The position numbers and the translations under genes were made by a program. The notes under the pieces are model-generated. The model was not told the DNA's origin and did not search any database. It saw nothing but the letters and a program-made list of their open reading frames with translations. A stretch of DNA of 64,000 nucleotides from a virus: IMG/VR virus record IMGVR_UViG_3300045999_011383; one strand, written 5' to 3'. Within the stretch, counting starts at the first letter, position 1, and each line of letters opens with the position of its first letter. Of this stretch, positions 5,283-23,854 are shown one piece after another.

Positions 5283-5283
5283 G

Positions 5284-5379: not shown

Positions 5380-5382
5380 GTA

Positions 5383-5670
5383 ATGGATAAAGAATTTTAC
5401 GGGGGGTTACTATTCTGTGGTTACGCAACCTTTCAGCTTCTAAGCTTTTTGTTAAAAGCATTTCCTGTTACCACTGGAGGGGCGATCGCACTAATATTTT
5501 TAGGATTATTACTAATAATAATTAGTGGCATTAATAACTGGTTAGGTTTGTACTACAAACATCACGGAATTCTCAATAAAACACAAAACATAGTAGGTTT
5601 TGCACCTATTTACACACTAGGAAGTTTAGCTTTATTTGCAGTCATGGTAGGAATTTATGCAGCATCTTGA
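5383..5670 (+). CDS. membrane protein
   Basis: 95 aa with three hydrophobic spans. Confidence 0.55.
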   Translation: MDKEFYGGLLFCGYATFQLLSFLLKAFPVTTGGAIALIFLGLLLIIISGINNWLGLYYKHHGILNKTQNIVGFAPIYTLGSLALFAVMVGIYAAS

Positions 5671-7703: not shown

Positions 7704-7899
7704 GAAGTTAGAGGGCTTTATCTTAGGGTCAGAACAGGGATTAATCCATAAGAATACTGGACTTTATGACATTATTTTCACCACCAAAATAAGGGAAGCA
7801 AGACTGTTTAATTCAAGACGTGAAGTTGACACTTTTAAAACATTAAGAGGATTAGATTTGATGCCACTAACTTGTTATCAAATCTGTCAACAAACATAA
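7696..7899 (+). CDS. hypothetical protein
   Basis: 67-aa ORF overlapping the previous stop codon. Confidence 0.45.
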   Translation: MSKKLEGFILGSEQGLIHKNTGLYDIIFTTKIREARLFNSRREVDTFKTLRGLDLMPLTCYQICQQT

Positions 7900-7916
7900 T
7901 GAATACTTTGCTGGCA

Positions 7917-7948
7917 AAAGAGTATATGAGTAATTGTATACTCTTTTT
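7917..7948 (+). terminator. rho-independent terminator
   Basis: AAAGAGTATA-10 nt-TATACTCTTT stem followed by TT. It lies just after the 7899 stop. Confidence 0.5.
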
Positions 7949-8059
7949 AAGCATTAAAAATTATCGTTATTTATGTTTGATTACCTATGCTAATATATTG
8001 TTGTATAATAACAAAAGTTCACTAATTTATTTTTTTAATTTTGGTTTAGAGCGAAGATT

Positions 8060-8878
8060 ATGTTTAGCCCACAGCAAGTATTAGACTACATAAAAACGCG
8101 GGGTGGCGATGTTGAACTAAGGGATTTAAACCACTTTGGCAATAGTTTAATCAAAAGATTAGAAGCAGCAAGATGTATTAAGATAACTGGTAGGGTAGGG
8201 GAACTTAAAGTATCTCTAATTTGCAGTAATTTTGACAGCAAGCAACAGAAAAATATTGAACCCACTGAAACCATTGTTCAACCCCCAAAACACCCTGAGA
8301 AGGCAAAATTAAAAAAGCCTAAAACACCATATAAGCGACTTAAACCCAAAAAAGAAAAAGCCCCAGGGATAAAAACTAAGTGTAAATTGTTAAGAGAATC
8401 AATACTTAATGAAATCAAAAAGTCCAATAAACCCATGTCCACAGAAGACATAAGAACGGCACTAACTTTAAATATGAGTGCAAAAAGGGTTTACTATCAT
8501 TTAAAAAGTCTTGAAAAACAAAATTTAATCACCTCATTTGATTGGCATATTATCTTTTGGGTAAGTATAGAGAAAAAAGACTTATTGAACAAAGCTCCCG
8601 CAATGTATGTACCAAGAGACAGAAACAAAGCCCTTGTTTTAGAAGTTTTAAAAACCGCAGATAAAGCGTTGTCTGTAAAAGATGTTGTTGCATTGTTGTT
8701 CTTTAAATTGTCCGCATATACAGTCAGAAGAATATTGTCAATACTTATTCAGGACGGCATTGCTCAAAGCAATGTTGTTCCTAGTAACAAAGAATTTTAC
8801 TATGCTTGTAACGACAACACAAAAGCAATAATAAGTTTGCAAAAATTAAAAAAAACAAAGTTTTCTCCCCTGAATTAA
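8060..8878 (+). CDS. multi winged-helix DNA-binding protein
   Basis: 272 aa with three wHTH-like segments (for example STEDIRTALTLNMSAKRVYYHLKSLEKQNLITS) and a Lys/Pro-rich linker. Confidence 0.5.
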   Translation: MFSPQQVLDYIKTRGGDVELRDLNHFGNSLIKRLEAARCIKITGRVGELKVSLICSNFDSKQQKNIEPTETIVQPPKHPEKAKLKKPKTPYKRLKPKKEKAPGIKTKCKLLRESILNEIKKSNKPMSTEDIRTALTLNMSAKRVYYHLKSLEKQNLITSFDWHIIFWVSIEKKDLLNKAPAMYVPRDRNKALVLEVLKTADKALSVKDVVALLFFKLSAYTVRRILSILIQDGIAQSNVVPSNKEFYYACNDNTKAIISLQKLKKTKFSPLN

Positions 8879-8964
8879 GTTAAGATCAAAATAGTTTTTG
8901 AACCTACTACTCCCATGTCAAATCAACACTCAAGTGAGTATGTTTCCCACCAAAAAGATGAATT

Positions 8965-9321
8965 ATGCAGTTGGGAACTATGAAAAATACTCAATCAAAA
9001 ATAGACTACAGTAAGCGATACGGAAATCCTAGAAAGTATCGCCAACAATGCGCGATCGCTCACAAGTCAACCCATGGGCTATGCTGTTATTGCATTACTA
9101 GCAAATCAGATGAATTACATCATGCCTACTACGGCAAGGATGTCATAGGAGAATCGGTATTTCCTGTTTGCTTACGTTGTCATCAAACTATCTGTCATGA
9201 CCCCAAGAATTGGATTATAGACCACAAAAATCAATTGTGGAAAAATAGAAACACCACCAAGTTTTTAGAAAGACTAAAATTAGGTTACAGGCTATTATAT
9301 GAAGGCATAAACCTGATATAA
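8965..9321 (+). CDS. HNH/Zn-finger nuclease-like protein
   Basis: CCYC...DELHHAYY...CLRCHQTICHD arrangement of Cys and His residues. Confidence 0.45.
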   Translation: MQLGTMKNTQSKIDYSKRYGNPRKYRQQCAIAHKSTHGLCCYCITSKSDELHHAYYGKDVIGESVFPVCLRCHQTICHDPKNWIIDHKNQLWKNRNTTKFLERLKLGYRLLYEGINLI

Positions 9322-9344
9322 TGTCAATGTGTAATAAGACCCCA

Positions 9345-9376
9345 GGATGGGAAACTGCGCTCCCATCTTTTTTTTA
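9345..9376 (+). terminator. rho-independent terminator
   Basis: GGATGGGA-8 nt-TCCCATC stem followed by a run of 9 T. Confidence 0.6.
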
Positions 9377-9445
9377 TTGCACACATTAATAAAAATAAAT
9401 GGTATAATAAAAAAGTCTTTTGGCTGTTACCCTGTTGTATAACCA

Positions 9446-9470
9446 CTCGCGCCTCCTCCGCGAGTTTTTT
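9446..9470 (+). terminator. rho-independent terminator (ends a possible short transcript)
   Basis: CTCGCG-7 nt-CGCGAG stem followed by TTTTTT. Confidence 0.5.
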
Positions 9471-9500
9471 ATTTTTAAAGTCATCTGGTAGAGGTAATTT

Positions 9501-10307
9501 ATGAAAAAAAATAACTTATTAATACAGTTGATGGTTCTGTCGTTGGTGCTACAAACGGCAATACATTCTGAAACCGGAATTACTAAAAAGGCAATTGCAG
9601 TAAATGAGTCATCTTTGATTAAAGCTCAAGCACCTGTTCCTCAAAAAACAGAAGTCCAGAATAAAGAAGATTACTATGAACTTCGTGATGCACTAAGATC
9701 CCTTGATATCATCAAAGCCTTAATAATTTTTTCTGGATGTATTTTTACAGCCATTGTATCCATGATGGGTGAGGCTTTGGTTAAGCAAGTTATTGAGCAA
9801 ATCAAAAATATTGTTATTGAAGTTGTTGGTAATCAACAGATGTTTAACAACATATCCTCTTCAGAAATTACAGAAATCAATGCAATGATGGAAAGGATTA
9901 GGTATGACTTAAAAGCAGTCAGAATATCTTTGTTTAAATTCCATCTAGACAACCATTCTATATTTTTAGAAGTAGCATCTAGTGGCAAACACTCAATGGC
10001 TAGTCGCCCGCCAATTTCTAGGCATTTTTTTGATAGTGCCATTAAACCTATGATTGATAATAAAATTTCCTACTCTTGCTGCGGTAGTGAAGGTGAGGTT
10101 TGTTCTACTTGGTTAAGCAGTAGAGACACGGGACGTTATGCTATATATTTATTTTATTATAAAGAAAATTTCGCTGGATTTATATTAGTTGAATGGAGTA
10201 AATCTTTCTTTGAAAATTGGTTTTTTAATGAAGACATGGGAAAATGTGAACCACAATTAAAGATGCTATCTGCTATGATCAGTGAAGCAATAAAGGACAA
10301 AAATTAA
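9501..10307 (+). CDS. signal/TM-anchored protein, paralogue of 30082..30813
   Basis: N-terminal signal-like sequence plus a TM span. The C-terminal domain aligns by eye with the 243-aa protein (MERIRYDLKAVRISLFKFH versus MREIRDFTQFNRVSLYFLD). Confidence 0.55.
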   Translation: MKKNNLLIQLMVLSLVLQTAIHSETGITKKAIAVNESSLIKAQAPVPQKTEVQNKEDYYELRDALRSLDIIKALIIFSGCIFTAIVSMMGEALVKQVIEQIKNIVIEVVGNQQMFNNISSSEITEINAMMERIRYDLKAVRISLFKFHLDNHSIFLEVASSGKHSMASRPPISRHFFDSAIKPMIDNKISYSCCGSEGEVCSTWLSSRDTGRYAIYLFYYKENFAGFILVEWSKSFFENWFFNEDMGKCEPQLKMLSAMISEAIKDKN

Positions 10308-10374
10308 ACTGTTGTAAAACCCTGGCAATGCACAATAAATCAATAGTAGAGCGAGCAACTACCAGGGTAAATAT

Positions 10375-11511
10375 TTAATCTCTTATTTGCACAGGCATGG
10401 TTAAATATGTCATTTTTAATCCACTTAACGGAGTAAAAATAACTGGTTGCAACTGATGATTTAAGTGAATTTGAATCTCTGCGGAAGATAACTCTTTAAG
10501 TCCTTCCAAAAGATATTTAACATTAAACCCGACTTCGATATCAGTACCAGAAACTTGGGCTGGTATTGACTCTATAGCACTACCCACATCTTGAGTTTCG
10601 CAGGACAAAATTACTAGTTGATTGTCCCTATCTAAAGACAATTTGACAATATTGTTTTTCTGACTAGCTAACACAGAAATCCGTTCTAAGGTGCTAATAA
10701 ATTGTTTTCTGTCTATTGTTACTTCTCGCTCAAATTGCCTGGGAATTAATTGATTATAAGCAGGATAATGACCTTCTAATGTGCGACTGGTTAATCTTTG
10801 GTTTCCACGCACAAATACTACTTGTACCGGATCTATGTAAATTTCAACCTGTTCAGGAGCAGAACCCTGGCTTAACATTTTTTGCAATTCTCGTAACGCT
10901 TTAGCAGGAATTGTCACCTCTGATTCTTGATCCTCGTCTGACTCACGACTGGTTTCCACTACCGCTAATCTGTGTCCATCGGTAGAGGCAAATTCTATAC
11001 TATCTCGCTTTAAGAAAAAATGCACACCAGTGAGAACCTGTTTAGTCTCATCAGAGCTAGTAGCAAATAAAGTACGTTGCAGTCCCTCGCTAAGTGCCGA
11101 AGCAGAAACCTCAATTGGTTCTACCTCGTGAACTGTTGGCAACTCAGGAAACTCATCAGCATTCATAGCACGGACTTGATAGCGACCGCTTTTAGGTTTT
11201 AAAGTGACGGTAATACCACCGCTTTCTTCTTCAGTGCTACTGATTGTAATGTCACCCTGGGGTAATTTAGAAACAATATCTAAGAGTAGTTTAGAAGGTA
11301 TGGTAATTTCACCACCCTGTAACACCTGAGCATCAAAAGTAGTACAAATGCCTAAACTTAAATCAAAGGAAGTTAATTCCACTTGATCAGTGTCGCTGTT
11401 AGCCTTTAACAAAATATTAGCAAGTACCGGATGAGTTGGGCGTGAAGGAACAGCACGACTAGCCAAAGAAAGATTGGCGTTAAGTTCAGATTGAGAGCAA
11501 ATTAATTTCAT
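10375..11511 (-). CDS. dnaN: DNA polymerase III beta sliding clamp
   Basis: 378 aa. Canonical N-terminus MKLICSQSELNANLSLASRAVPSRPTHPVLANILLKA, and a three-domain length. Confidence 0.9.
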   Translation of the reverse strand: MKLICSQSELNANLSLASRAVPSRPTHPVLANILLKANSDTDQVELTSFDLSLGICTTFDAQVLQGGEITIPSKLLLDIVSKLPQGDITISSTEEESGGITVTLKPKSGRYQVRAMNADEFPELPTVHEVEPIEVSASALSEGLQRTLFATSSDETKQVLTGVHFFLKRDSIEFASTDGHRLAVVETSRESDEDQESEVTIPAKALRELQKMLSQGSAPEQVEIYIDPVQVVFVRGNQRLTSRTLEGHYPAYNQLIPRQFEREVTIDRKQFISTLERISVLASQKNNIVKLSLDRDNQLVILSCETQDVGSAIESIPAQVSGTDIEVGFNVKYLLEGLKELSSAEIQIHLNHQLQPVIFTPLSGLKMTYLTMPVQIRD

Positions 11512-11640
11512 GATCTGTGGGAATGTTACTCGTATTAATACTATATTTAATAATAATATTAATTGATTAGTTTGTCAATAATACTCTCATTTTATGGTAT
11601 TATTTTTATAGAAATTAATAATTAAAATCAGCAAAAAACC

Positions 11641-13086
11641 ATGACCGAAAAACCAGGGGAATATACAGCCAAGTACAAGCCAACTCAATTAATTCAAGGA
11701 ACTGGACAGACTGCATTGATAACAGGATGGACTATCAAAGAAGCAGTCCAAAAACATTTGAGTAACCATGAATATGCAGTTATTGGGCAACTATACTCAC
11801 CCACAAGAGGGATTAACTTAGTGGTTCGGAATCTGCTATTAAATCCTCATGTTAGGTACTTAGTAATTCTCAATGGAACTAAGGAAGACAAAAACGCAGG
11901 TGGCTGTCAATGTTTAGCTGACTTTTTTCGTTATGGTTTCAATAAAGGTATTAGTGATATTGGTAGAAAAACCTGGGTAATTTCTTCTTCTATTACTGGC
12001 TATATTGACATCGAGATTGATATGAATGTTTTAAAAAAATTGCGTGAGTCTGTAGAAATCAAGGAAGTACAATCAATAGCCCAAGCTGTTGAAGCGGTCA
12101 GAGATTATGCAACTAAAAAACCCGTTGCACCTTGGGGAACACCCTTAGAATTTCCCATGAGTACAATTGAATCAAATACCCTACCAGGACCCCTCTATGG
12201 TCACAGAATAGAGGGTAAAACCATTGCGGAAACCTGGGTAAAAATCATCCATAGAATTAAAACAACCGGGGTGATCCGACCCACTAGCCATGATGGAACG
12301 TGGCAGGAATTGATAGATTTAATGGCAATTATTACCAATGAGCCTGATGATTTTTACTTTCCTGAACCCAACTATTTGCCAGTAGATAGAAGTTTTTTAC
12401 AAGAATATATTTCTCAGATATTAGAGGACGCGCCTAGTCAAGAAGGGATAAAATACACCTATGGACAAAGGTTACGTTCCTGGTTTGGTAAAGACCAGGT
12501 TCGACAGGTAATTGAAAAGCTAACCCATGACATTAATTCCGCCAGGGCTGTAATGTCTCTGTGGGATATTAAAGAAGACAACGATGAATCTAATCCCCCC
12601 TGTTTAAATCATATTTGGGTAAGGGTAGTCAGCGGTGAACTGTCTTTAACCGCAACCTTTCGTAGTAATGATATGTTCTCAGCATGGCCAGCCAATGCCA
12701 TGGGTTTAAGGGCTTTACAGAAATATATTTATAGTGCTTTATTGAGTTCCCATCAATCCCTCAAATTAGGTCCATTGATTACCATTAGTCAGAGCGCTCA
12801 TATTTATGATGATTGTTTTGAGAATGTCAGCAAGGTAATCTCATCTCAGTATGGTAAGATTGCCAAAAACCAGGATTACTCTGATCCTGTGGGGAATTTT
12901 ATTATTAGTAATCAAGAGGGTAAAGTCGTGGTTGAGCATACCACCCCTGGTTCAGGAGAGGTGGTTAATTGTTATTCAAATAAGTCCGCTTATAAGGTGT
13001 CACAAGAAATAATGAGAGATTGTCCAGGGTTGCAAAACTCCCATGCTATGTATTTGGGATGGGAGTTGTGCAAGTTAAAGTATTAA
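11641..13086 (+). CDS. thymidylate synthase / dNMP hydroxymethylase family enzyme with about 250-aa N-terminal extension
   Basis: ThyA-type motifs are present: PPCLNHIWV (catalytic Cys), FRSNDMFSAWPANAMGL and SQSAHIYDD. The N-terminal half is unassigned. Confidence 0.7.
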   Translation: MTEKPGEYTAKYKPTQLIQGTGQTALITGWTIKEAVQKHLSNHEYAVIGQLYSPTRGINLVVRNLLLNPHVRYLVILNGTKEDKNAGGCQCLADFFRYGFNKGISDIGRKTWVISSSITGYIDIEIDMNVLKKLRESVEIKEVQSIAQAVEAVRDYATKKPVAPWGTPLEFPMSTIESNTLPGPLYGHRIEGKTIAETWVKIIHRIKTTGVIRPTSHDGTWQELIDLMAIITNEPDDFYFPEPNYLPVDRSFLQEYISQILEDAPSQEGIKYTYGQRLRSWFGKDQVRQVIEKLTHDINSARAVMSLWDIKEDNDESNPPCLNHIWVRVVSGELSLTATFRSNDMFSAWPANAMGLRALQKYIYSALLSSHQSLKLGPLITISQSAHIYDDCFENVSKVISSQYGKIAKNQDYSDPVGNFIISNQEGKVVVEHTTPGSGEVVNCYSNKSAYKVSQEIMRDCPGLQNSHAMYLGWELCKLKY

Positions 13087-13201
13087 ATTGTGCTTTAGCG
13101 TTCTTGTTCTTCTTTCTTTTGTTCTTCCTTGAATGTTCGCCAATCATCGAGAACTTTAAACCATTTTTTCTCCAAACACCAAAAATTTAACTCTCAAAAA
13201 A

Positions 13202-14224
13202 CTAGGAAACCTTGATTTCAGCGATCGCTTCTTCTAAATGTTCCTGAATCACTAATCCCTCTCGCTCTAAAATCGCTCGTTTAGCTGCATCTTGGGCAAC
13301 CCTCACAGCTTGAGCCGCAGAAAAATCTTTCATCTGTTCAATAATTCTTGGCCAGTTGATAGATCCCACTTCAATTGCAGATAGTGTTTCCCTCAGTATA
13401 AATTCTAGTTCTTTTTCTCCCGGTTTGGGTACTGCAATCAGATCATCAAATCTCCTCCATAGGGCAGTATCCAAAGATTTATTCAAATTCGTAGCGGCTA
13501 CCATAAGCCCAGAAGAAGGTTGATATTCATCCAAAATTTGCAAAAATGTATTTACTACTCGCTTAATTTCTCCCACTTCCTGAGAATCTTCTCGTGTCTT
13601 AGCAATTGAGTCACATTCATCTAAAAATAATAAACATGGATTTTTTGCAGCATCCTCAAATACCAGTCTTAAATTACTGGCTGTCTCCCCTAAAAAAGAC
13701 GACACCATTGCATCAAAACGTACTTTTAACAGTGGTAAACCTGTATTCCAGGCTAAACGTTCTGCTCCTAATGTCTTTCCACACCCAGGCGGTCCATAAA
13801 GGAGAATTTTTTGCCGATAACGCAGCCCATGATGAGCTAGTCTATCTCTTGCTGCATACTCGCGCTCAATTCTTTGAAAACGCTTTTCAATTTTTTCAGG
13901 CAATACCATGTAATGACGTAGTTTATCCCTTGGTATGGTCGTTACCAAGGGAAGGTTAAAACGCTTACTGGTTGGTAATTCGCTTAAACCCTGTAAGTTT
14001 TCTCCTGTTGTTTGTGTGGCATTTGCAAGAAAGGAAACAGGTTTGATAGGGTCGGGAGATTGATCTCTGGGTTTCTTTTTAGCAATATTCTCTAACTGGT
14101 CAGCAAGGAGGGTATGCCCTTTACTGCGCTCTTCTTCTATGACCAGATATGCAAGTTTGTCAATCGCTTCTTGGTCTGAACTAGCGATCGCTCTGAAAAA
14201 CCTTTTGAGAATCTCTCCCTTCAT
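13202..14224 (-). CDS. classic-clade AAA+ ATPase
   Basis: Walker A GPPGCGKT, Walker B LLFLDECD, sensor VAATN and the second-region-of-homology motif ALWRRFD. Confidence 0.8.
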   Translation of the reverse strand: MKGEILKRFFRAIASSDQEAIDKLAYLVIEEERSKGHTLLADQLENIAKKKPRDQSPDPIKPVSFLANATQTTGENLQGLSELPTSKRFNLPLVTTIPRDKLRHYMVLPEKIEKRFQRIEREYAARDRLAHHGLRYRQKILLYGPPGCGKTLGAERLAWNTGLPLLKVRFDAMVSSFLGETASNLRLVFEDAAKNPCLLFLDECDSIAKTREDSQEVGEIKRVVNTFLQILDEYQPSSGLMVAATNLNKSLDTALWRRFDDLIAVPKPGEKELEFILRETLSAIEVGSINWPRIIEQMKDFSAAQAVRVAQDAAKRAILEREGLVIQEHLEEAIAEIKVS

Positions 14225-14270
14225 ATTGCCTCTCTCTGCAAAAATAGAAGTTTCTTATGTATGTAGTACA

Positions 14271-14299
14271 ATTATACTCTATAACTCAGTGGATGACAA
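14271..14299 (-). promoter_or_regulatory. sigma70-type promoter for the AAA+ gene
   Basis: On the minus strand: TTGTCA, 17 nt, TATAAT. It lies about 45 nt upstream of the ATG at 14224. Confidence 0.5.
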
Positions 14300-14323
14300 A
14301 TTGTATCATGATCTTGCCTTGCA

Positions 14324-14406
14324 TTGCAACTGGGCTTTGACTTGCAATTAACCCAGTCCCTCAAGGTCGGCTTCTTGCAATTAACCCAGTTCCCCAAGTC
14401 CGGTTT
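14324..14406. repeat. decayed CRISPR repeat remnants
   Basis: TTGCAACTGGGCTT (14324..14337) is the exact reverse complement of repeat positions 22-35. Two 30-bp units CTTGCAATTAACCCAGT(C/T)CC(T/C)CAAG(G/T)(T/C)CGG lie at 14341 and 14374. Confidence 0.55.
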
Positions 14407-15543
14407 GCTTCAACTATCCTCAGTCCCTAAGCCCAGTTGCAAGTGTCAAGGGGTTTATTTTCGAAACCCTTATATTTCCTACGTCGTTTCAACTATCCTC
14501 AGTCCCTAAGCCCAGTTGCAAGTGAAGGACGTGATTCTAATGCAGCAAAGAACATCTGTTTCAACTATCCTCAGTCCCTAAGCCCAGTTGCAAGACACAT
14601 TCTTTATCTTTTAAATATAGCTTATACCATCTGTAGTTTCAACTATCCTCAGTCCCTAAGCCCAGTTGCAAGAACACCTTACCACCTTTAAGGTAAGACG
14701 GCACTTTAGGTTTCAACTATCCTCAGTCCCTAAGCCCAGTTGCAAGACAGAATTGAGAGAACTTTCAAGCCATAAGAGAGTAGCGTTTCAACTATCCTCA
14801 GTCCCTAAGCCCAGTTGCAAGATTTTCAAAAATTTAAAAATGAATCTGGACATGAAGATGTTTCAACTATCCTCAGTCCCTAAGCCCAGTTGCAAGAATG
14901 CACATTAACAAAAAAAAACCATGAAAAACCGTTTCAACTATCCTCAGTCCCTAAGCCCAGTTGCAAGAAAACTTATCAGATACTTAATAAGGCTATAGGT
15001 TAGTTTCAACTATCCTCAGTCCCTAAGCCCAGTTGCAAGCTCCCATTTATACAGCTTACTAGCAGCGCAAATAGTTTCAACTATCCTCAGTCCCTAAGCC
15101 CAGTTGCAAGTCAAAAATCAACAGGAATTGGCCACTACTATTGAAGGATGTTTCAACTATCCTCAGTCCCTAAGCCCAGTTGCAAGATAAAGCCGTCCGG
15201 GGAGGCATGACTAATGAGGATGGTTTCAACTATCCTCAGTCCCTAAGCCCAGTTGCAAGTTGAGACAGTTAAACCCAAGGTACTTTAACCTAGTTTCAAC
15301 TATCCTCAGTCCCTAAGCCCAGTTGCAAGAAAGTATTAAAGAAATGCTCAAACTACCGGCATGTTTCAACTATCCTCAGTCCCTAAGCCCAGTTGCAAGT
15401 TGCTACATTTACCATACTTATGGAAACTGTCAATGTTTCAACTATCCTCAGTCCCTAAGCCCAGTTGCAAGTTACTTTGTAAGACGTTATGTAAGACGGC
15501 GATGGAGTTTCAACTATCCTCAGTCCCTAAGCCCAGTTGCAAG
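14407..15543. CRISPR. CRISPR array with 16 repeats of 37 bp and 15 spacers
   Basis: Repeat GTTTCAACTATCCTCAGTCCCTAAGCCCAGTTGCAAG starts at 14407 (this copy begins GCTT), 14486, 14558, 14636, 14710, 14785, 14860, 14931, 15003, 15074, 15150, 15223, 15293, 15363, 15435 and 15507. The spacers are unique and 33-42 bp long. Confidence 0.95.
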
Positions 15544-15886
15544 TCCCGGCTTTCAAAAGCTTTATAAGTCAAGGGTTTCAAAGGCAATTCTGGCGGACCT
15601 GCTAAAAAATCTCATTTCAGCCGCTTAAATCAGCTTGGGTCTTTAAAAGAAACTGAGCGAAACTCTTGCAATGTCATGGTTCTGGACTTTTGGCGAATGT
15701 CCAGGGTTTTTACCCTAGCTTTGATATGCCAAAAAGATGAGATAGTTGCCAGCCATAGTTCCGGCTGGTCTTTGGGGGTTGTCGCCTTCCCCCTTACTTT
15801 TTAGGGTAAAACCCTTACAAGTCATAAGCTAACATTACATTAGCTACCCGTCCAAACTGCGGTAATTTAATATTAACCTAGTCCTA
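15544..15886 (-). ncRNA. candidate leader / tracrRNA-like structured region (hypothetical)
   Basis: 343 nt with no ORF between the nuclease stop and the array. Hairpins at 15682..15704, 15703..15716, 15749..15768 and 15774..15793. GAGATAGTTG at 15739..15748 resembles the repeat end. Confidence 0.3.
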
Positions 15887-17761
15887 TTACTTTGTCAAGC
15901 GTTTTTTCTTAAATCTTTTAGGCTTTTGATAAACCAGCCTAACATTATGGTATTTGACCTCTCCCAATTCAAAACCACCATTCTGTTTATGATTTCTAGC
16001 AGCATTGGTATCAGCTTGTTGGGCAACGTCAAATAATTTACAGTCAGGGTTTTTACAGACAAATTCATACTGCGATCGCCTTTCCCCTTTCTGTCCGCAA
16101 CAATGGCATATTTGAGAGCTATAATTAGCAGGTGGTTCATGGAAGTTGCCACCTCTATTTTCTATTTTTTGCTTGGTTTTAGCTTTCAAGTCACCTAAAC
16201 ATCTTTGTCTCATAATCCAGTTTAAACCACGTTTAGCAGATGCACCATTGTGAGCATATCCCACACCCTCTGGTAATGCTTTTGGATCTACTTGTTTAAG
16301 TAAGTTGGTAACTTGTGTATCCTCCCAAGATATATGTTCATAAGTGCGAGATAATCTTGTGGATAACTTGTGATTAAAGGCATTAGAGGAATTAGCCCCG
16401 CGTTCGTGTAGACGGCTGATTTTTTGTTGTAACTTAGATTCATTCTTTGTCTTGATTCTAGAGGTCTTGTTGCCTAAGCTTTTCCATTTTTTATCATTAA
16501 TTAATTCAGCGTTGTCTAGACGTGATTGTAATTCCTCAATGTGAATTGAGATCCGCTCCCTAGTAAGGTTAGGAAGGAATAAAGCCCCATGATCTGTAGA
16601 CACTACAGCCTGTACCCCAGGGTCAATACCCGCACTCAGATTTTTACCTTTTAAAACTGATGACTGCTTAATTTGTTGCTCAATGAATTTCAGTTTTGAC
16701 TTGATATCTTGGTACTCTTCACTGTCTTCACCAAACTCTTTTTTTACCTTGGGTAACTTATTTGTTAGTACAGACTTTTCCTCTTGCAATGGGTGAGCAA
16801 CTACAATATTAATGTAGTATCCTGACTGCTGTTTGGTAATCATGTATGTCCGTGGCAAAACCTGAGAAAGATTCAATCTTTTTACCCAGTTTTTGTCAGC
16901 AATAGTGATGGGAGTAAGTCCGGTGACAGTAACTATGTTTTTGTCAATGTCAATCCTGTTAGGCGCACATTGATTATTAGATAAAGTTGCAATCTTGTCT
17001 ACATCTTTTTTGAATTTTGGCTTTCTACTGTTTATCCTTTTAGGATCTAAAAATGCCTTCCAAGATTCCTTAAAAAATGCTAACAGCCCGCCAATATAGT
17101 GGGAAGAAACCTGCAAGTCTGGTAAATTTTGGAATGCTCTTAAAGTATTTAATCCAGTCACGTTGTCAAGTTTTTCCAAAGTAGTCAGTTCCCTACCCTC
17201 ATACTTTCCACTAGGGAATGTGCGGTATTTGTGAGGGACTATTTCTATCCGTTGCCAGGGCTTATCGCCTTTAACTAATTTGTACCCCTTGACGTAAATA
17301 ACGCCTTTTTTGGTATTAACTGGAATATTGATATTTTCATCTCTCTTCCAATAATTCCCGCCTGTGGCTATTTGACAGGATAATCCTTCATAAGCACTAT
17401 TTCCAAGCCTTAATGGCACAGGAATAATGCCTTCCAAGCTAAATGGACTCCATCTGGTAAATATCTCAAATTCTTTCTTGCTAACTAATTCCTGTTCTTT
17501 TTTAGACAGCTTAGGCTTATCCTTGGTGGAATAGTAATCTTTAACTAATTGTTGTTGCTCAGGTTTAAGTTTTTCCAGTTTTTCAGTAGCCTTGGTTAAA
17601 TCTGCACTGCGTTTAGCAGCCCAAGCATACCAATCTACGCAGTGATTGTGTAGTTGGTTGGAAAGTGCTAAATTCCACAGCCATGTTAATTCATCTAAGT
17701 AGCGATCGCACACAGCCGCCTGTTCTGATGAGAGTTTGATTTTAATCTTAATTGTCTTCAT
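15887..17761 (-). CDS. TnpB/Cas12-family RNA-guided-nuclease-like protein (candidate type V effector)
   Basis: 624 aa. RuvC-I AGIDPGV, RuvC-II ISWEDT, Zn finger CHCCG...CKNPDC, RuvC-III QADTNAARN. TnpB-like N-terminus IKIKLSSEQAAVCDRYLDELTWLWNLAL. Confidence 0.85.
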   Translation of the reverse strand: MKTIKIKIKLSSEQAAVCDRYLDELTWLWNLALSNQLHNHCVDWYAWAAKRSADLTKATEKLEKLKPEQQQLVKDYYSTKDKPKLSKKEQELVSKKEFEIFTRWSPFSLEGIIPVPLRLGNSAYEGLSCQIATGGNYWKRDENINIPVNTKKGVIYVKGYKLVKGDKPWQRIEIVPHKYRTFPSGKYEGRELTTLEKLDNVTGLNTLRAFQNLPDLQVSSHYIGGLLAFFKESWKAFLDPKRINSRKPKFKKDVDKIATLSNNQCAPNRIDIDKNIVTVTGLTPITIADKNWVKRLNLSQVLPRTYMITKQQSGYYINIVVAHPLQEEKSVLTNKLPKVKKEFGEDSEEYQDIKSKLKFIEQQIKQSSVLKGKNLSAGIDPGVQAVVSTDHGALFLPNLTRERISIHIEELQSRLDNAELINDKKWKSLGNKTSRIKTKNESKLQQKISRLHERGANSSNAFNHKLSTRLSRTYEHISWEDTQVTNLLKQVDPKALPEGVGYAHNGASAKRGLNWIMRQRCLGDLKAKTKQKIENRGGNFHEPPANYSSQICHCCGQKGERRSQYEFVCKNPDCKLFDVAQQADTNAARNHKQNGGFELGEVKYHNVRLVYQKPKRFKKKRLTK

Positions 17762-19852: not shown

Positions 19853-20371
19853 GTGACAACCAATCATTACGGAATGCCACAGACACGAGACAAGTGTTAT
19901 GGCGTGGCTGCTTGTTTAAGTTATTGGGTTTTTAAATGCCGTGACAGGAAACGTAGTCCAGCCATGGGAACTAAAACCTGGACATATTTGGAATCTTCTA
20001 TCAAGAATTGTGCAGAAATATCCACAAATTTAGAAGATTATCTACAAAATCTTTGTGATAAATTGATATCGCAATTAAGACCTGTAGAGCTAACCAAAAT
20101 TATTCAACCAACTCAGAGAATACTGAGAATTAATGAAGATGCAACTGAAATCAAGGAACTACCAATAGATCGAAGTTTGGTTTTTATGGGGTGGCTTGAC
20201 TTGCTTGCCGATATTGAACCCCACGGATTTAGTGAGTGGGACGTAATGGAATTGTTAAGAACAAAAACAGGAGTTATTCAAGTAATTTGTCGTCTGCGAT
20301 TTGAAGAAGATAGAAGTGTGGGGCTTGATGAACCAGAAGAATTTATTGAGGTAGAGGTGACAAATGTTTGA
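19853..20371 (+). CDS. first gene of the RAMP operon, possible small-subunit (Cas11-like) protein
   Basis: 172 aa with a GTG start after GGGAAAG. The 8-nt overlap with the next gene and the size fit, but I saw no diagnostic motif. Confidence 0.3.
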   Translation: MTTNHYGMPQTRDKCYGVAACLSYWVFKCRDRKRSPAMGTKTWTYLESSIKNCAEISTNLEDYLQNLCDKLISQLRPVELTKIIQPTQRILRINEDATEIKELPIDRSLVFMGWLDLLADIEPHGFSEWDVMELLRTKTGVIQVICRLRFEEDRSVGLDEPEEFIEVEVTNV

Positions 20372-21497
20372 TAATTATAATATTTTTGACAGAGAGAAAT
20401 TAACCCTGCATTGCTTAATCACGCTACAGACACCATTGAGCCATATAGGCGAAGTGTCTGGCAATGTTAGCAATCTGAAAACTACTAAGTTATTGGACTT
20501 TGAAGGTAATCCTAGAAGTGTTTTTGTCTATTCTGGTAATGCAATCAGAAACGGTATTTTGCGCCGGGTAGGAGTGGCAGCAGCACTCACGGAATTAGGA
20601 ATTAAGGTAAATCCAGATACTCACCATACAATGTTTGCTGGCGGGCGAATTGATGGGGGGACAGCTTCGGATATGGAACTGGATAAAAAGATCCGGGTCT
20701 TTATGCCTTGGCTATCAGTATTGGGAACAGCCAAACCCATAGGTGTTTTTGGGACTAAAGAAGCCCAGATGGTAGCTGGTAGAAGTAATATTGGCAGTGG
20801 TTATTTAGTCTGCTATGAGTCAGCAGAATACGTTTACAACCAACTCCCAGCAGTTTTACCACCGGAAATACAGCCAACTATGGCCTTATTAATTGAAGCT
20901 AAAACCAGACTTTCTTCCGACCCTTTTGTATCCACAAAATCAGAAGACTTAACTAACTGGAATCAAGCAAAATCAGAATGTTTGCCACTGATCAAAAAAG
21001 CAATGAAAACATGGACTGAATACTTAACAATTGATCAGACAACTCGCAGAGATAGCACTTTAGATCCCAACTTACTCAAATTTCTACCATCAGAAGTACA
21101 AGCACAATTAACAGGTGATGGTAAAACTAAAGAAAAAACTAAATCAGATCAGATGATTGCGTCTGACAGGCTGATCATGCCCGGTGCTAAACTTTATTCT
21201 CGATGGGATCTAACTTGTACTCAAATAGAAGAGGGATGGATATTTGATACTTTACTCAAGTTTTCAGAATCACCTTATATTGGTGGTAAAGGCAATCGTG
21301 GCAATGGCAGGGTTCATCTTGATTTCTGGTTTCAGTCTGACCATGAACGGGGGTTATTGTGTTCTCTGAAAGATGGAATTATGGGAGATAGGTTTCTTAA
21401 TTCCCATCAAAAATATCGGGAATATATCAATCAGTATCAGCAGTTTTTAAGTGAAGCAAAAACATCCAAGGAATTAAGGAAGTTGTTAGGTGAATAA
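20364..21497 (+). CDS. RAMP protein, Cas7/Csf2-like backbone subunit
   Basis: 377 aa. N-terminal LHCLITLQTPLSHIG, then YSGNAIRNGILRR, and a C-terminal glycine-rich loop YIGGKGNRGNGRV typical of RAMPs. Confidence 0.6.
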   Translation: MFDNYNIFDREKLTLHCLITLQTPLSHIGEVSGNVSNLKTTKLLDFEGNPRSVFVYSGNAIRNGILRRVGVAAALTELGIKVNPDTHHTMFAGGRIDGGTASDMELDKKIRVFMPWLSVLGTAKPIGVFGTKEAQMVAGRSNIGSGYLVCYESAEYVYNQLPAVLPPEIQPTMALLIEAKTRLSSDPFVSTKSEDLTNWNQAKSECLPLIKKAMKTWTEYLTIDQTTRRDSTLDPNLLKFLPSEVQAQLTGDGKTKEKTKSDQMIASDRLIMPGAKLYSRWDLTCTQIEEGWIFDTLLKFSESPYIGGKGNRGNGRVHLDFWFQSDHERGLLCSLKDGIMGDRFLNSHQKYREYINQYQQFLSEAKTSKELRKLLGE

Positions 21498-22176
21498 TTT
21501 AAAAGTCACTGCATATTTGTCTACACCGATTGGTGTCTATGACAATTGGAGTCCTTCTTTGGAGGGACTTCTTACCTATAGATTACTAGAAGAAAATAAT
21601 CTATTGTCTCCCAATCCCACCGCAGAGCAAGTAGCAAAGGTTCAGAATTTTTTAGTAAATGAATTACCGCTTAAACAGAATACAATAATGAATGATAAGT
21701 ATTTCTGTGTAAGTTCACCTTGCTATGTGGTTCAAGGTGAGGCTACTGATAAATATCGGAAAAGATGGGACAATCACGAAAATAATCTGAACTGGGGAAA
21801 AAGAAAGCCTAAATTCTTGACGGGTGAAGGTGCAGAAAAGTCCTATGATTTACCGCTATACACTCGTTTAACAAATAGTATTAGTTGGTTTGTAACAGGC
21901 GACAGAACCAAGATTGACGCTCTATTGTCACCTGTTACCCATATTCAGAAAAAACGAAGTTATGGCAATGGTGAAGTTAAGCAATGGCAACTAGAAATAG
22001 TTTATGACGACTATCATTTGTGGCGAGATAATAAACTAATGCGTCCTATGCCCGTGAAGTTAATATCACAAAAAATAGATAATCCTCAAATGATTTGGGG
22101 ATGGAAAAGCCCGTCTTGGTTAGCAGAAAATAAAGAACTTTGTTATATGCCAAAGGACAATGTGATTTATGCTTAG
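21490..22176 (+). CDS. RAMP protein, Cas5/Csf3-like
   Basis: 228 aa. LKVTAYLSTPIGVYDNWSPSLEGLLTYRLL N-terminus and a KKRSYGNGEV glycine loop. Overlaps both neighbouring genes. Confidence 0.5.
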   Translation: MNNLKVTAYLSTPIGVYDNWSPSLEGLLTYRLLEENNLLSPNPTAEQVAKVQNFLVNELPLKQNTIMNDKYFCVSSPCYVVQGEATDKYRKRWDNHENNLNWGKRKPKFLTGEGAEKSYDLPLYTRLTNSISWFVTGDRTKIDALLSPVTHIQKKRSYGNGEVKQWQLEIVYDDYHLWRDNKLMRPMPVKLISQKIDNPQMIWGWKSPSWLAENKELCYMPKDNVIYA

Positions 22177-22915
22177 TAATGGCTCTGGGGTTCAATACCC
22201 TTGGTTGAAAAAGAAAATTACTAAAGCTATTAATTTCATTAATCAGTGGCTAGAACAATGCAACTATCAGGTTTATGCAAGTATTTCCGGTGGTAAAGAT
22301 AGCTTAGTAATGTCTCATTTGATCAGGAAAGTTTACCCTGATTGCCCGTTAGTTTGGGTAAATCAAGGGCTGTTAGCAGAATGGGATGATTGTATTGAAT
22401 TATTGGAATACTTGAAAACTCAAAACTGGAACATTATTGAGCTTTGTCCAGTTCGTGATTTATGGCATTTATACATAGATCACGGAGTTCCGTTAGAGGG
22501 TACGATGGATACAAAAGTAGATAAATTAATCAACCAAAAATTGATTTATGATCCATTGCAAGAATACCAAGAAATCAACAATATCAAAGGGTACGCATGG
22601 GGAATAAGGAAGCAAGAAAGCAAAAACAGAGCATTTTATCTTAACAAGTACGGTGAAGTTCATGAACTAAAAAATGGGTTAATTTGTTGCTCGCCTATTG
22701 CTCACTGGACTACAGAAGAAATATGGCAGTACATAGATATGTACTCACTCAAATACCCAGCAATTTATGACATTAACAAAATGACAGTCAGGAATGGTTG
22801 CCCGATTGGAACTACAGGAGCAAACTGGGGTAGATTAGCTGAATTAAAAAGATATTACCCCAATATTTACAACCAATTTGTTGATAAATTCCCACAAATA
22901 TCGAACTATGTCTAA
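22169..22915 (+). CDS. PAPS-reductase/CysH-like PP-loop protein
   Basis: PP-loop SISGGKDS and WGIRKQESKNR. I saw no C-terminal ECGLH motif (it reads RNGCPIG instead). Confidence 0.8.
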   Translation: MLSNGSGVQYPWLKKKITKAINFINQWLEQCNYQVYASISGGKDSLVMSHLIRKVYPDCPLVWVNQGLLAEWDDCIELLEYLKTQNWNIIELCPVRDLWHLYIDHGVPLEGTMDTKVDKLINQKLIYDPLQEYQEINNIKGYAWGIRKQESKNRAFYLNKYGEVHELKNGLICCSPIAHWTTEEIWQYIDMYSLKYPAIYDINKMTVRNGCPIGTTGANWGRLAELKRYYPNIYNQFVDKFPQISNYV

Positions 22916-23666
22916 TTGCTACCTTTGCGCTAAACCAGCATCAAATCCACTAGAATTATCCAATACTTTCACCATGCACTCATCGGCTAAGTGTCCAGAC
23001 TCTAAGCTGCTGTGCGATCGCTGCTATTCTACAATTTCTGGTAATCAAAAGCAGTTATGGTATTGGAATGAAGGTAAAAATAAGTGGTCAAAACTGTGGG
23101 GACGATCTTTGTCCAGGGTGTACCAAGGCGATACTTTAATAGCACCAATAATTAAAGGCACTCACACTGAAGGCAAAGATACTTTCAGTGTGGTTAGAAA
23201 CTTATTGACGCGGGTAGAAATCAGGGAATATTTATTAAATCCTCCTGAGCCACCGTTCACTATCGCTATAGCAGAATCAGGACAAAAACACATTATCCCA
23301 TGGGCATTAGAAGCGCGTAGCTGTAACTTTTTTCCAATTCAATTTGAGTTAGACACGGTTTATATTGACAACAGATTCAAGGAATCTTTGCAAGTATATG
23401 AACAACTAATGGGATTAGGGTTTAGTAAGTCTGAAATTGATTCAGGAAACTACAGAAGCGATAGATTGATGAAAGTGTTTGATAAATTTTGGGAACTTGA
23501 GGAATCCATAAAAGCCATTAGAGGGACTAGATTAATGGAATTAATAAATTACGTCGCTCAACTACAATCAAGTGCCGTCGTGGCGGAAATAAAGCCAATT
23601 CCTGTAATTCCTGTTTCTCCCACGAGTCCAGACAAATCAAATCCAGTTCAGTTATCGTTGTTTTAG
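22908..23666 (+). CDS. Zn-ribbon protein, Csf1-like large-subunit candidate, with C-terminal clamp-binding motif
   Basis: The ATG at 22908 overlaps the cysH-like stop (ATGTCTAA). N-terminal CYLC...CPDSKLLCDRC. The C-terminus is NPVQLSLF followed by the stop. Confidence 0.45.
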   Translation: MSNCYLCAKPASNPLELSNTFTMHSSAKCPDSKLLCDRCYSTISGNQKQLWYWNEGKNKWSKLWGRSLSRVYQGDTLIAPIIKGTHTEGKDTFSVVRNLLTRVEIREYLLNPPEPPFTIAIAESGQKHIIPWALEARSCNFFPIQFELDTVYIDNRFKESLQVYEQLMGLGFSKSEIDSGNYRSDRLMKVFDKFWELEESIKAIRGTRLMELINYVAQLQSSAVVAEIKPIPVIPVSPTSPDKSNPVQLSLF

Positions 23667-23699
23667 CAAAAACCCTTATAATTCCGATCCGTTAAAAAT

Positions 23700-23774
23700 A
23701 ACGCTGGAGTCTTTAAAATCAACGCTGGAGTCAGCAAAGATAACGCTGGAGTCCTTAAAATTAACATTGGAGTC
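23700..23774. repeat. four 21-bp-phased iterons AAC(G/A)(C/T)TGGAGTC
   Basis: Cores at 23700, 23721, 23742 and 23763. They are followed by the AT-rich tandem AACAATCTTAATT x2 (23805..23830). The same core occurs at 41848..41901. Confidence 0.7.
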
Positions 23775-23854
23775 GTTAATTTTAAGGTTTCATCTATATT
23801 ATTAAACAATCTTAATTAACAATCTTAATTAAGAGTCTCTAGTTTAAGTACAAA

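Follow-up and report, generated by a model that had tools for sequence, protein, structure and literature searches.

Several described systems resemble the locus analyzed here. The closest is Cas12p (PDB 9JFS, 9JG3; Wang et al., bioRxiv 10.1101/2025.01.20.633832), which is phage-borne, has an intact RuvC domain and uses a 37-nt repeat. Its tracrRNA is encoded between the gene and the array and forms a multi-stem scaffold with an AAAC:GUUU pseudoknot, in which tracrRNA nt 7-10 (GUUU) pair with AAAC of the crRNA. Adaptation genes are not nearby. Guided by tracrRNA and crRNA, Cas12p cuts dsDNA beside a GTN PAM, and cutting is strongly boosted by host thioredoxin. When reprogrammed, Cas12p cuts DNA and protects against the phages T4 and T7. 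The same paper noted that Cas12p has a PI-domain layout in common with type V-K and a similar guide RNA architecture; it left the hosts and natural targets undetermined and did not mention type IV systems.

Type V-K (Cas12k CAST) has the gene-tracrRNA-array order, a 37-bp repeat with GTTTCAAC...GTTGAAA(G/C)-type ends, a GTN PAM and no adaptation genes of its own; adaptation by host type I-D proteins has been proposed (10.1101/2021.02.06.429022). The length and ends of these 37-bp repeats are common to cyanobacterial I-D, III, V-K and V-U2 arrays (10.1101/2021.02.06.429022). Type V-U2 (C2c8) is found in cyanophage vB_AphaS-CL131, a siphovirus of Nostocales of ~100 kb (PMC6293099). It consists of an effector and an array without adaptation genes, with repeats of 36-37 bp and the array downstream of the effector. 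Phage-carried arrays are also known from Nostoc cyanophage N-1, which has no cas gene, and Vibrio phage ICP1, which has a complete I-F class 1 system with adaptation genes. Both are thought to act against host elements or rivals. Type IV-B systems comprise Csf1, Cas11, Csf2, Csf3 and a CysH-like protein, and virus-borne IV-B has precedent (PMC10848311). We found no link between IV-B and type V in the papers on type IV-B that we consulted.

We analyzed a CRISPR array in a 64-kb stretch of DNA (the window). This array very probably stores the guides of a CRISPR-Cas12p system (type V-P, "Cas12 hacker") encoded by a phage. On the minus strand, the order is cas12p, a promoter-like site, a predicted tracrRNA of about 185-260 nt that ends in an anti-repeat, and the array. 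The features of this region are:

15887..17761, minus strand: cas12p, 624 aa, with RuvC residues D380/E480/D584 and zinc-finger cysteines C552, C555, C569 and C574
15870..15898, minus strand: promoter-like site for the tracrRNA (TTGACA, 17 nt, TAATAT), overlapping the end of cas12p
15746..15872, minus strand: structured tracrRNA scaffold, matched by covariance model R1 at 137.7 bits
15604..15863, minus strand: predicted tracrRNA gene, with its 5' end inferred at 15863 (ACCGCAGUUUGG...)
15739..15749, minus strand: anti-repeat half 1 (GCAACUAUCUC), pairing with repeat positions about 25-33 (GGAUAGUUG)
15664..15673, minus strand: anti-repeat half 2 (CAUUGCAAGA), pairing with CUUGCAA at the repeat's 5' end
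15544..15603, minus strand: leader, from the T-run to the first repeat, from the gap alignment
14407..15543, minus strand: CRISPR array with 15 spacers between 16 copies of a 37-bp repeat, which as RNA reads CUUGCAACUGGGCUUAGGGACUGAGGAUAGUUGAAAC
14523..14557, minus strand: spacer 2, guide AGAUGUUCUUUGCUGCAUUAGAAUCACGUCCUUCA, matching the RuvC-III coding region of the c2c8 (type V-U2) effector gene in sibling phages
14407-14443: terminal repeat with one mismatch; the leader-proximal end of the array is at 15543
14341..14406, plus strand: two degenerate, spacerless V-U2 (C2c8) 'B'-type repeats, CTTGCAATTAACCCAGTCCCTCAAGGTCGGCTT and CTTGCAATTAACCCAGTTCCCCAAGTCCGGTTT
14322..14336, plus strand: 14 nt of the array repeat in inverted orientation (TTGCAACTGGGCTT)

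The window has in common with the published Cas12p system each property of repeat, carrier, RuvC, tracrRNA and missing neighboring adaptation genes given above. It differs in belonging to another phage, in its 15 other spacers, in the middle of the repeat and in a K332 to N change. The likeness to CL131 extends to homologous repeats, the effector-array arrangement and the ~100 kb Nostocales phage as carrier, and V-U2 cassettes of the CL131 kind occupy the window's array site in two related phages, L197 and L198. However, the window effector is only 29% identical to V-U2 over 60% of its length, and V-U2 arrays have no R1 tracrRNA scaffold alongside and have repeats ending ...UUG(G)CAAG. Unlike V-K, in which the RuvC of Cas12k is dead and the protein works with the Tn7 proteins TnsB, TnsC and TniQ, the window has an intact RuvC, a long array with 15 spacers and a phage as carrier; no transposase or TniQ families were among the Pfam matches of the 81 window ORFs. 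In contrast to N-1 and ICP1, it combines a single-protein effector with a tracrRNA, and we found no adaptation module. A cyanophage-borne CRISPR and the Cas12p effector family have already been published, and the novelty is lower than the original prediction assumed. As a member of a published system, the array is ordinary and opens no new category. Its value is in context that is missing from the Cas12p paper: a Nostocales host lineage, an adjacent IV-B operon, a V-U2 swap and a candidate natural target.

The window protein is 88.0% identical to Cas12p (PDB 9JFS). Its residues 1-615 align with chain residues 129-741 at 1268 bits, that is, over the full length, and the profile of the effector family matched 9jfs 'Cas12p' at 1004 bits. 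The PDB sequence is itself the effector of a related locus, L008 (613/613 identical), and that locus contains IV-B and a convergent C2c8 array. The RuvC D/E/D triad and the four cysteines were invariant among 25 homologues. Three of the four PAM-contact residues of the solved protein are kept (D197, N261 and Q262 are D199, N263 and Q264 in the window protein), and the fourth, K332, is N334. The region with the TB domain aligns to solved Cas12p without large gaps. A phage thioredoxin motif was not found within the 64-kb window. We also considered the effector as a V-U2 protein like that of CL131. This was rejected because it matched the curated C2c8 model NF038192 at 187.6 bits and only over model positions 253-454 (the C-terminal half), below the cutoff of 350 bits; the positive controls CL131 and L197 scored 451 and 472 bits. 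The order and spacing of gene, tracrRNA and array were kept in all 12 relatives examined that have an array downstream, even at 37% protein identity; the spacing was 254-396 nt in most of them and 522 in L020. The claim that effector-type genes accompany the array is supported: the 'nuclease gene' is cas12p, and a full type IV-B set is also present.

The array was described accurately apart from its strand. The 37-bp repeat, GTTTCAACTATCCTCAGTCCCTAAGCCCAGTTGCAAG as read on the plus strand, occurs in 16 copies from 14407 to 15543. Fifteen are exact, and the copy at 14407 is a one-base variant (GCTTCAAC...). In 100 dinucleotide-preserving shuffles there were 0 matches, and no copies are expected by chance. 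The spacers are all distinct and measure, in order, 42, 35, 41, 37, 38, 38, 34, 35, 34, 39, 36, 33, 33, 35 and 35 bp. Direct reading of the sequence, the shuffle control and this listing thus upheld the predicted 16 repeats, single deviating copy and 15 unique spacers of 33-42 bp. The repeat had been taken in the plus-strand orientation, and we correct this: the RNA would be made from the minus strand, reading CUUGCAAC...GUUGAAAC. The exact 37-mer had 0 matches in IMG/VR, and a 21-mer of the repeat had 0 matches in GTDB (185,579 species-representative genomes). In JGI metagenomes, the 21-mer was found in two contigs only, of the L008 and L010 types.

The predicted functional strand of the array is the minus strand. 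This orientation is based on the strand of the tracrRNA and on the anti-repeat, both of which match the published guide RNA, and on degenerate repeats, which in both the window and L003 lie at the end away from the effector. With the minus strand as the functional strand, the variant copy at 14407 would be the terminal, leader-distal repeat. We rejected a plus-strand reading in which AT-rich DNA at 14225-14340 would be the leader and the inverted repeat fragment (14322-14336) would serve as the anti-repeat. The reasons are that 14225-14340 holds the promoter-like site of an AAA gene, that the minus strand carries the scaffold with its G.U pairs, and that the PAM flanks fit the minus-strand reading only.

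We located the tracrRNA and the anti-repeat independently of the published guide RNA, and both match it, pseudoknot included. The conserved scaffold element directly follows the cas12p stop codon. Compensatory changes were seen at 19 of the 31 pairs in its structure, and 95.5% of cells were paired. In contrast, 0 of 500 shuffles were as good, and slid partners were 27-52% paired. A G.U pair conserved in 10/11 scaffold sequences points to the effector strand. Model R1 matched beside every array of the family, and phages of the L004 type have a second R1 copy beside a second, inverted array. There was no match in an Rfam scan at gathering thresholds, and a tRNA scan found none. The predicted 3' end of the tracrRNA is between about 15679 (the paper's 185 nt) and the T-run at 15604-15609. 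The leader is kept in most relatives and is missing from L008 and L015. The promoter-like site is visibly conserved in L004, L013 and L007, and its second hexamer is TATAAT in the phage Cr-LKS4. An RNA started from this site would begin ACCGCAGUUUGG, with GUUU at nt 7-10 as published, and could form the AAAC:GUUU pairing with the repeat end GUUGAAAC. In Cr-LKS4, the pseudoknot pair co-changes to GUUC:GAAC.

The energy of the anti-repeat:repeat duplex averaged -31.4 kcal/mol for anti-repeats and repeats of the same locus, compared to -23.8 across loci. Near full-length complements of the repeat were found in L015 (-44.5), L028 (-40) and L014 (-34). In the window, an insertion of about 60 nt separates the two halves of the anti-repeat, and some cross-locus duplexes are as stable as that of the window (-28.5) or more so. 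By these comparisons, the anti-repeat is locus-specific and covaries with the repeat across loci.

Phage gene content, the ends of a sibling genome and the lack of an integrase among the 81 window ORFs (Pfam) agree with the original prediction that the array is phage-borne. The window contains tail and head genes (J-like, L-like, I/K-like, minor tail proteins and a Mu-type portal) and other genes of phage type (DnaB, a DnaD-like loader, orphan methylases and NblA). The AAA+ gene, previously counted among replication genes, encodes an IetA-like ATPase with no clear role in replication. A sibling contig of 100,083 bp is ~97% identical in nucleotide sequence over window positions 1631-14291; other common blocks are mostly 95-99% identical, with two at 90-92%. 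The ends of this contig overlap inside the window, at 52085-52198, indicating a circular or terminally redundant genome of ~100 kb without host flanks. The window, cut at both ends, is about two thirds of the genome. Both flanks of the Cas12p locus are syntenic with the sibling phage at 96-98%, and an independent assembly of 3,015 bp is 100% identical through the first repeat, leader, tracrRNA, cas12p and upstream DNA. We found the same architecture in >10 IMG/VR viral contigs, and full-length homologues with arrays in cellular assemblies (Scytonema L007, Anabaena L022 and several MAGs). Phage and plasmid records had no megablast match to the 13-24 kb part of the window. The carrier is probably a ~100 kb phage of filamentous cyanobacteria of the Nostocales lineage. 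NblA, the presence of homologues in Cylindrospermopsis phage isolates and that of relatives in Anabaena/Sphaerospermopsis assemblies suggest a bloom-forming filamentous host, and this lineage points experimenters to the native thioredoxin and host adaptation machinery as partners.

One of the 15 spacers had an identifiable target, and there was no perfect match with a GTN PAM. Spacer 2 matches c2c8 of L197 with 1 mismatch (5' flank GCA), of L198 with 2 mismatches (5' flank GTA) and of L008 with 2 mismatches (flank GCA), and it matches 31 nt of CL131 with 2 mismatches and a one-codon indel. The original prediction looked to a BLAST search of the spacers; run with the whole array against phage and plasmid collections, this search connected spacer 2 to CL131, and the other spacers had no credible target. 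A match of the array to E. coli phage TH47 (E=0.3) was treated as chance. In the minus-strand reading, the flanks GTA (spacer 2 in L198) and GTT (an L003 spacer in L022) fit the published GTN PAM, and reading these protospacers on the opposite strand gives CAC and GGC. Flanks of GCA (L197 and L008) and TTG (cas12p genes) were also seen, the latter, which is not GTN, beside matches of an L004-type spacer. A T-rich PAM (TTTG), hinted at by one protospacer, was dropped for the published GTN. We found no further targets for 244 pooled spacers of the family in 1.3 Mb of tail and replication regions from related phages. Spacers 4 and 15, which have GTAAGACGG in common, had 0 matches in exact scans of viral and genome collections, and the window spacers do not match the window itself. 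A sibling phage's gene for a CRISPR nuclease is the candidate natural target, and PAM and seed differences in some siblings could reflect escape.

A type IV-B operon (19853..23666, plus strand) is 2 kb from cas12p. It contains:

19853-20371, plus strand: cas11-like gene (PADLOC Cas11, 2.5e-6)
20364-21497, plus strand: csf2 (cas7; PADLOC Csf2, 9.1e-35)
21490-22176, plus strand: csf3 (cas5; PADLOC Csf3, 2.5e-40)
22169-22915, plus strand: cysH-like gene between csf3 and csf1 (Pfam PAPS_reduct, 6e-18)
22878-23666, plus strand: csf1 (cas8-like; PADLOC Csf1, 1.6e-21)

All five IV-B components are present. NCBIfam matches were weak but concordant; Csf2 and the Cas11-like protein are identified by their PADLOC profiles, PDB sequence searches being uninformative. 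The 81 window ORFs matched 26 Pfam families, and neither Cas6 nor DinG was among the 25 of these that were listed. The operon has no array of its own, and the sole nearby array is tied to Cas12p. It differs from described IV-B systems in that its carrier is a cyanophage and its neighbor a type V (class 2) array. Among close phage loci with enough flanking DNA, IV-B was 1-8 kb from cas12p in 11/12, representing about 5-6 distinct lineages, and a Csf3-like gene is near the 45%-identical homologue in Cr-LKS4. In both the window and L008, the two cassettes are present with conserved DNA between them; L197 and L198, without cas12p, have only a 3' remnant of csf1. L003 and the cellular relatives have Cas12p arrays and no IV-B within 10 kb.

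IV-B is linked context, and a function in common with the array may be considered as a candidate only. The co-presence in the window and L008, set against the csf1 remnant in L197 and L198, is the basis for suggesting that the Csf/CysH-like module and the Cas12p array are one functional unit on these cyanophages, which we regard as rather unlikely. In such a unit, RNAs made from the Cas12p array or the tracrRNA locus might, for example, be taken up by the Csf complex, which has no array of its own. Alternatively, IV-B and Cas12p might both need the thioredoxin of the host; enzymes of the classical CysH type are clients of thioredoxin. If there is such a unit, this phage lineage, with its cultured relative Cr-LKS4, would be a natural system for finding the role of IV-B, and the recurrent IV-B neighbor could make that function testable.

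It is unlikely that the array, alone or additionally, feeds crRNAs to the IV-B Csf complex through a host Cas6 or the Cas12p pathway. Such a supply would fit the complete IV-B set without array or Cas6 so close to cas12p, the linkage in 11/12 loci and the parallel presence and loss of the two cassettes. Many repeats of the family end in a hairpin and AUUGAAAC, the format of class 1 Cas6, and reviews have proposed that IV-B scavenges crRNAs (PMC8175902). However, the window repeat has no Cas6-type hairpin, Cas6 was not found in the window, and the solved IV-B complex bound heterogeneous non-CRISPR RNA (PMC8175902). The covariation of anti-repeat and repeat ties the array to the tracrRNA and Cas12p, and L003 and the cellular relatives keep Cas12p arrays without nearby IV-B. 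That covariation also bears on whether the array is a captured host class 1 array that uses host I-D/III effectors, with the Cas12-like gene an unrelated TnpB transposon passenger. The 37-bp repeat has GTTTCAAC/GTTGAAAC-type ends like those of cyanobacterial class 1 arrays, the cas-less array of N-1 is a precedent for which host effectors were proposed, and TnpB genes are common in cyanophages. Nonetheless, we consider capture extremely unlikely. It is already contradicted by the anti-repeat, the R1 model and the PDB match. The orthologue is an experimentally proven crRNA-guided nuclease, the layout is constant in 12/12 relatives, and the repeat 21-mer is absent from all of the species-representative genomes.

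There is also hardly any chance that the window is a cyanobacterial chromosomal island, a degraded prophage or a chimeric assembly of a host array and phage DNA. The homologues with arrays in cellular assemblies and the cut ends of the window would allow this. In contrast, the sibling genome is circularly permuted, with its ends overlapping inside the window, the flanks are syntenic with it, and the independent assembly joins the first repeat to the DNA upstream of cas12p. The architecture recurs in viral contigs, and neither an integrase nor a tRNA was found in the window. Finally, the system might be mainly regulatory, with guides that bind the phage's own DNA or that of the host without cutting and with phage-versus-phage interference secondary or absent. 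An L004-type array has a match to its own cas12p gene, with 1 mismatch and a flank other than GTN, the V-U2 array of L198 perfectly matches its own genome, and the authors of the CL131 study suggested regulation for V-U2. We judge this very unlikely, since the window spacers have no match within the window, the RuvC triad does not vary and the orthologue cleaves DNA and, once reprogrammed, gives protection from T4 and T7.

For an array that stores guides for a phage-encoded Cas12p, we suggest the following. A host RNase would process the long duplex of repeat and anti-repeat, as happens in other systems with a tracrRNA. Fresh spacers might be supplied in trans by host type I-D Cas1-Cas2-Cas4. 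This idea comes from the lack of adaptation genes in the window, the 37-bp repeat length and the GTN PAM that is also used in I-D, in Cas4-dependent spacer selection (PMC5896167). No Cas1, Cas2, Cas4 or Cas6 was detected among the 81 ORFs of the 64-kb window (Pfam, E<=1e-5); the ~36 kb of the genome outside the window could hold adaptation genes. The biological role would be conflict with rival phages, as the sole identifiable target is a sibling c2c8 nuclease gene at the same genomic site.

At that site, a sibling phage that is ~97% identical has a type V-U2 (C2c8) cassette where the Cas12p cassette would be. The DNA beside the window array appears to record such a swap. The two 33-bp units at 14341-14406, not reported in the original prediction, abut the array, and their repeat type differs from that of the array. 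L197 has 19 such 'B'-type repeats at the same site, beside the same AAA gene, and by this comparison the two units are a remnant of an alternative V-U2 cassette. V-P and V-U2 cassettes appear to exchange at a single hot spot. The inverted repeat fragment at 14322-14336, also new here, is probably a rearrangement scar.

We found that the repeat GTTTCAACTATCCTCAGTCCCTAAGCCCAGTTGCAAG is present 16 times at 14407-15543. The original prediction was of 16 repeats, of which only the copy at 14407 deviates, and 15 spacers of 33-42 bp. This was confirmed by direct count and by shuffled sequence, in which the repeat had no matches. Apart from a single mismatch in the copy at 14407, the copies are exact (15 of 16). 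No two spacers are alike, and the rest of the window gave no significant match to any of the 15.

Features of the locus and its surroundings (positions in the window)
left of the array: dnaN, a fusion gene of ThyA-like type, and the AAA ATPase gene of the next line
13202-14224, minus: AAA+ gene, IetA-like ATPase (PADLOC 2.8e-79; NCBIfam IteA, below its cutoff)
14322-14336: inverted fragment of the repeat, probably left by a rearrangement of the locus
14341-14406: two degenerate, spacerless 33-bp units adjoining the array, B-type (V-U2) repeats not included in the original prediction
15749-15739 and 15673-15664, minus: anti-repeat, in two parts
15746-15872, minus: tracrRNA scaffold, single copy in the window (covariance model match)
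15898-15870, minus: promoter-like site, TTGACA-N17-TAATAT
15887-17761, minus: TnpB/Cas12-like gene (cas12p, 624 aa), right of the array
19853-23666: complete type IV-B operon (cas11-like, csf2, csf3, cysH-like, csf1), 2 kb from cas12p
31435-31653, minus: NblA-like phycobilisome-degradation gene (Pfam 5e-10)

The effector has 56 homologue clusters, many from viral contigs of 50-100 kb. Across the family, the RuvC residues D380, E480 and D584 do not vary, nor do four cysteines of the zinc finger. The family profile matched PDB 9JFS/9JG3 (Cas12p) with 1004 bits. Residues 1-615 of the window protein align to Cas12p with 88.0% identity, and the PDB sequence is the effector of one of the relatives (L008, 613/613 identical). 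The PAM-contact residues D197, N261 and Q262 are kept, whereas K332 is N here; the predicted pseudoknot (GUUU/AAAC) is the same. We rejected assignment to type V-U2 (C2c8), a type reported on a Nostocales cyanophage in 2018 (PMC6293099). The window effector scored 187.6 bits against a cutoff of 350, its match being confined to the C-terminal half of the model, whereas ORF061 of cyanophage CL131 and a sibling-phage effector scored 451 and 472 bits.

Cas12p, or "Cas12 hacker" (type V-P), was described as phage-associated, with no host assigned (Wang et al., bioRxiv 10.1101/2025.01.20.633832). According to that report, the proteins are 500-700 aa and use a 37-nt repeat and a 185-nt tracrRNA; the guide RNA folds into six stems plus a pseudoknot in which AAAC of the crRNA pairs with tracrRNA nt 7-10; and the enzyme recognizes a GTN PAM (GTA being the best), cuts dsDNA, has trans-cleavage activity and is strongly activated by host thioredoxin. 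Judged by sequence, the locus is an added member (88% identity) of this already described system. What it may add is context: a probable host lineage, a possible phage-phage conflict over CRISPR cassettes and a possible link to type IV-B are useful leads.

The gene and array have a conserved arrangement. In 12 of 12 examined relatives with a downstream array, the array is on the same strand as the effector gene and 254-522 nt from it (254-396 nt in all but L020). Read in the effector orientation, the family repeat is CTTGCA...(A/G/C)TGAAAC, and its middle is free to vary, even among effectors that are 77-89% identical. A separate form was seen in a Leptolyngbyaceae MAG, in which four homologues (40-43% identical) are on separate contigs of one genome, each with a scaffold and short array upstream on the opposite strand. 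Here the family could have taken a mobile or multi-replicon form.

The interval between gene and array opens with a strongly conserved element with a predicted structure of 31 pairs. In the alignment, 95.5% of cells were paired, compared to 27-52% with partners slid; compensatory changes were present at 19 pairs, a result not equaled by any of 500 shuffles. One G.U pair is kept in 10 of 11 sequences, which favors the effector strand. Directly after this scaffold is a stretch complementary to the repeat of its own locus (mean duplex energy -31.4 kcal/mol, versus -23.8 across loci), and L015, L028 and L014 have nearly full-length repeat complements. A covariance model found a scaffold copy beside every family array. 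The promoter-like site, visibly conserved in L004, L013 and L007, would give an RNA starting ACCGCAGUUUGG at 15863. Together, scaffold, anti-repeat, covariance model and promoter site show, at the level of sequence, a tracrRNA-dependent type V system read from the minus strand. Our structure model was derived independently of the published guide RNA and agrees with it in detail: the predicted tracrRNA has GUUU at nt 7-10 and the repeat ends in AAAC.

Some relatives have additional scaffolds. In L004 and four other relatives (L005, L006, L011 and L013), another array, inverted, lies 2.3 kb upstream of cas12p, with a diverged repeat and its own scaffold copy, also detected by the model (in L004, array 6959-7669 and scaffold 7780-7904), so that two tracrRNA-array modules serve a single effector. 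The isolated, array-less phage Cr-LKS4 has a Cas12p homologue (45% identical) and three stand-alone scaffold copies (8960-9500 and 16047-16300). A clear promoter, TTGACA-N17-TATAAT, precedes at least the two that are upstream of the gene. In two copies the scaffold continues into ...UGGGAAC and then unique sequence, with the pseudoknot partner changed to GUUC; they look like natural single-guide RNAs. One guide is identical in phage RM-2018a and the other 97% identical, and one matches a second place in the Cr-LKS4 record.

The site appears to have a history of cassette exchange. The 12.7 kb that end at window position 14291 are shared with the sibling phage L197 at 97.4% nt identity. In L197, a B array of 19 repeats (CTTGCAATTAACCCAGTCCCTCAAGTCCGGTTTCGCC) and a C2c8 effector of 587 aa take the place of the window's array, tracrRNA and cas12p. 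The units at 14341-14406 have the position and orientation of the L197 repeats and are thus a remnant of a V-U2 cassette. In the published L008 locus, both systems are present and convergent.

In the minus-strand reading, spacer 2 matches c2c8 within the part that codes for RuvC-III. The targets are in L197 (one mismatch, guide position 2; 5' flank GCA), the sibling phage L198 (two mismatches; GTA), L008 (two mismatches; GCA) and, more distantly, CL131 (31 nt, two mismatches and a codon indel; TCA). Escape could account for the GCA variants and for the mismatch at position 2. Two other natural protospacers were found, one for an L003 spacer in L022 (flank GTT) and one for a small-array spacer of the L004 type (L004 12295-12330) in cas12p genes (locus position 11025-11060; flank TTG, not GTN). 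The latter is perfect in L013 and has one mismatch, at guide position 6, in L004 itself. None of the identified targets combined a perfect match with a GTN PAM, and 14 of the 15 window spacers had no identifiable target in the collections searched. Spacers 4 (14673-14709) and 15 (15472-15506) share GTAAGACGG, and GTAAGACG occurs twice within spacer 15. This suggests a common target containing repeats; neither had a match in any collection searched. A V-U2 array spacer of L198 (sites 12783-12819 and 156-192) matches its own genome perfectly, which could be self-targeting or regulation; it also matches window 1516-1552, inside a small ORF (1428-1661, minus), with one mismatch.

Arrays with near-identical repeats (window, L010, L008-A) have no spacers in common, a pattern consistent with active acquisition. 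No family of Cas1, Cas2, Cas4 or Cas6 was found among the 81 ORFs of the window (about two thirds of the genome), so acquisition would have to be in trans. The Cas4-dependent adaptation of host type I-D systems selects GTN (PMC5896167), and cyanobacterial I-D, III, V-K and V-U2 arrays have common 37-bp repeats with conserved ends (10.1101/2021.02.06.429022). We infer that this host machinery may supply new spacers.

The array was predicted to be phage-borne, and a sibling IMG/VR contig of 100,083 bp supports this, as do the phage genes. Most blocks shared by contig and window are 95-99% identical (two are 90-92%), and the ends of the contig overlap inside the window at 52085-52198, indicating a circular or terminally redundant genome of ~100 kb without host flanks; ~36 kb of such a genome is outside the window. 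A separate assembly of 3,015 bp agrees at 100% identity with the stretch made up of the first repeat, the leader, the tracrRNA, cas12p and the DNA upstream of it. The window also encodes lambda-type tail proteins (J, L, I/K, minor tail), a Mu-type portal, DnaB, a DnaD-like loader, orphan methylases, KilA-N and NblA. Genes for NblA-like phycobilisome-degradation proteins are a hallmark of cyanophages. Hosts in the Nostocales are suggested by NblA and by the identity of the relatives, among them isolated Cylindrospermopsis phages (Cr-LKS4, RM-2018a) and assemblies of Anabaena, Sphaerospermopsis, Nostocaceae and Scytonema.

The IV-B operon is 1-8 kb from cas12p in 11 of 12 close phage loci with enough flank; L197 and L198, without cas12p, retain only the 3' end of csf1. 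Together, cas12p and this operon bear out the expectation of effector-type genes. Type IV is not mentioned in the Cas12p paper (10.1101/2025.01.20.633832), and IV-B on viruses has precedent (PMC10848311).

No IetS-like protease partner was seen near the AAA+ gene, and the window had no tRNAs or Rfam matches; no integrase family was found among its 81 ORFs. Tandem repeats of 21 bp with the core (C/T)TGGAGTC form two sets, at 23692-23779 and at 41843-41906; the latter set falls in the 5' portion of the gene for the DnaD-like loader. They may be iterons or a replication origin. In addition, TTCTTCTCTCTTTCGTGC, a perfect 18-bp tandem repeat, is present in seven copies at 63874-64000, running off the window end.
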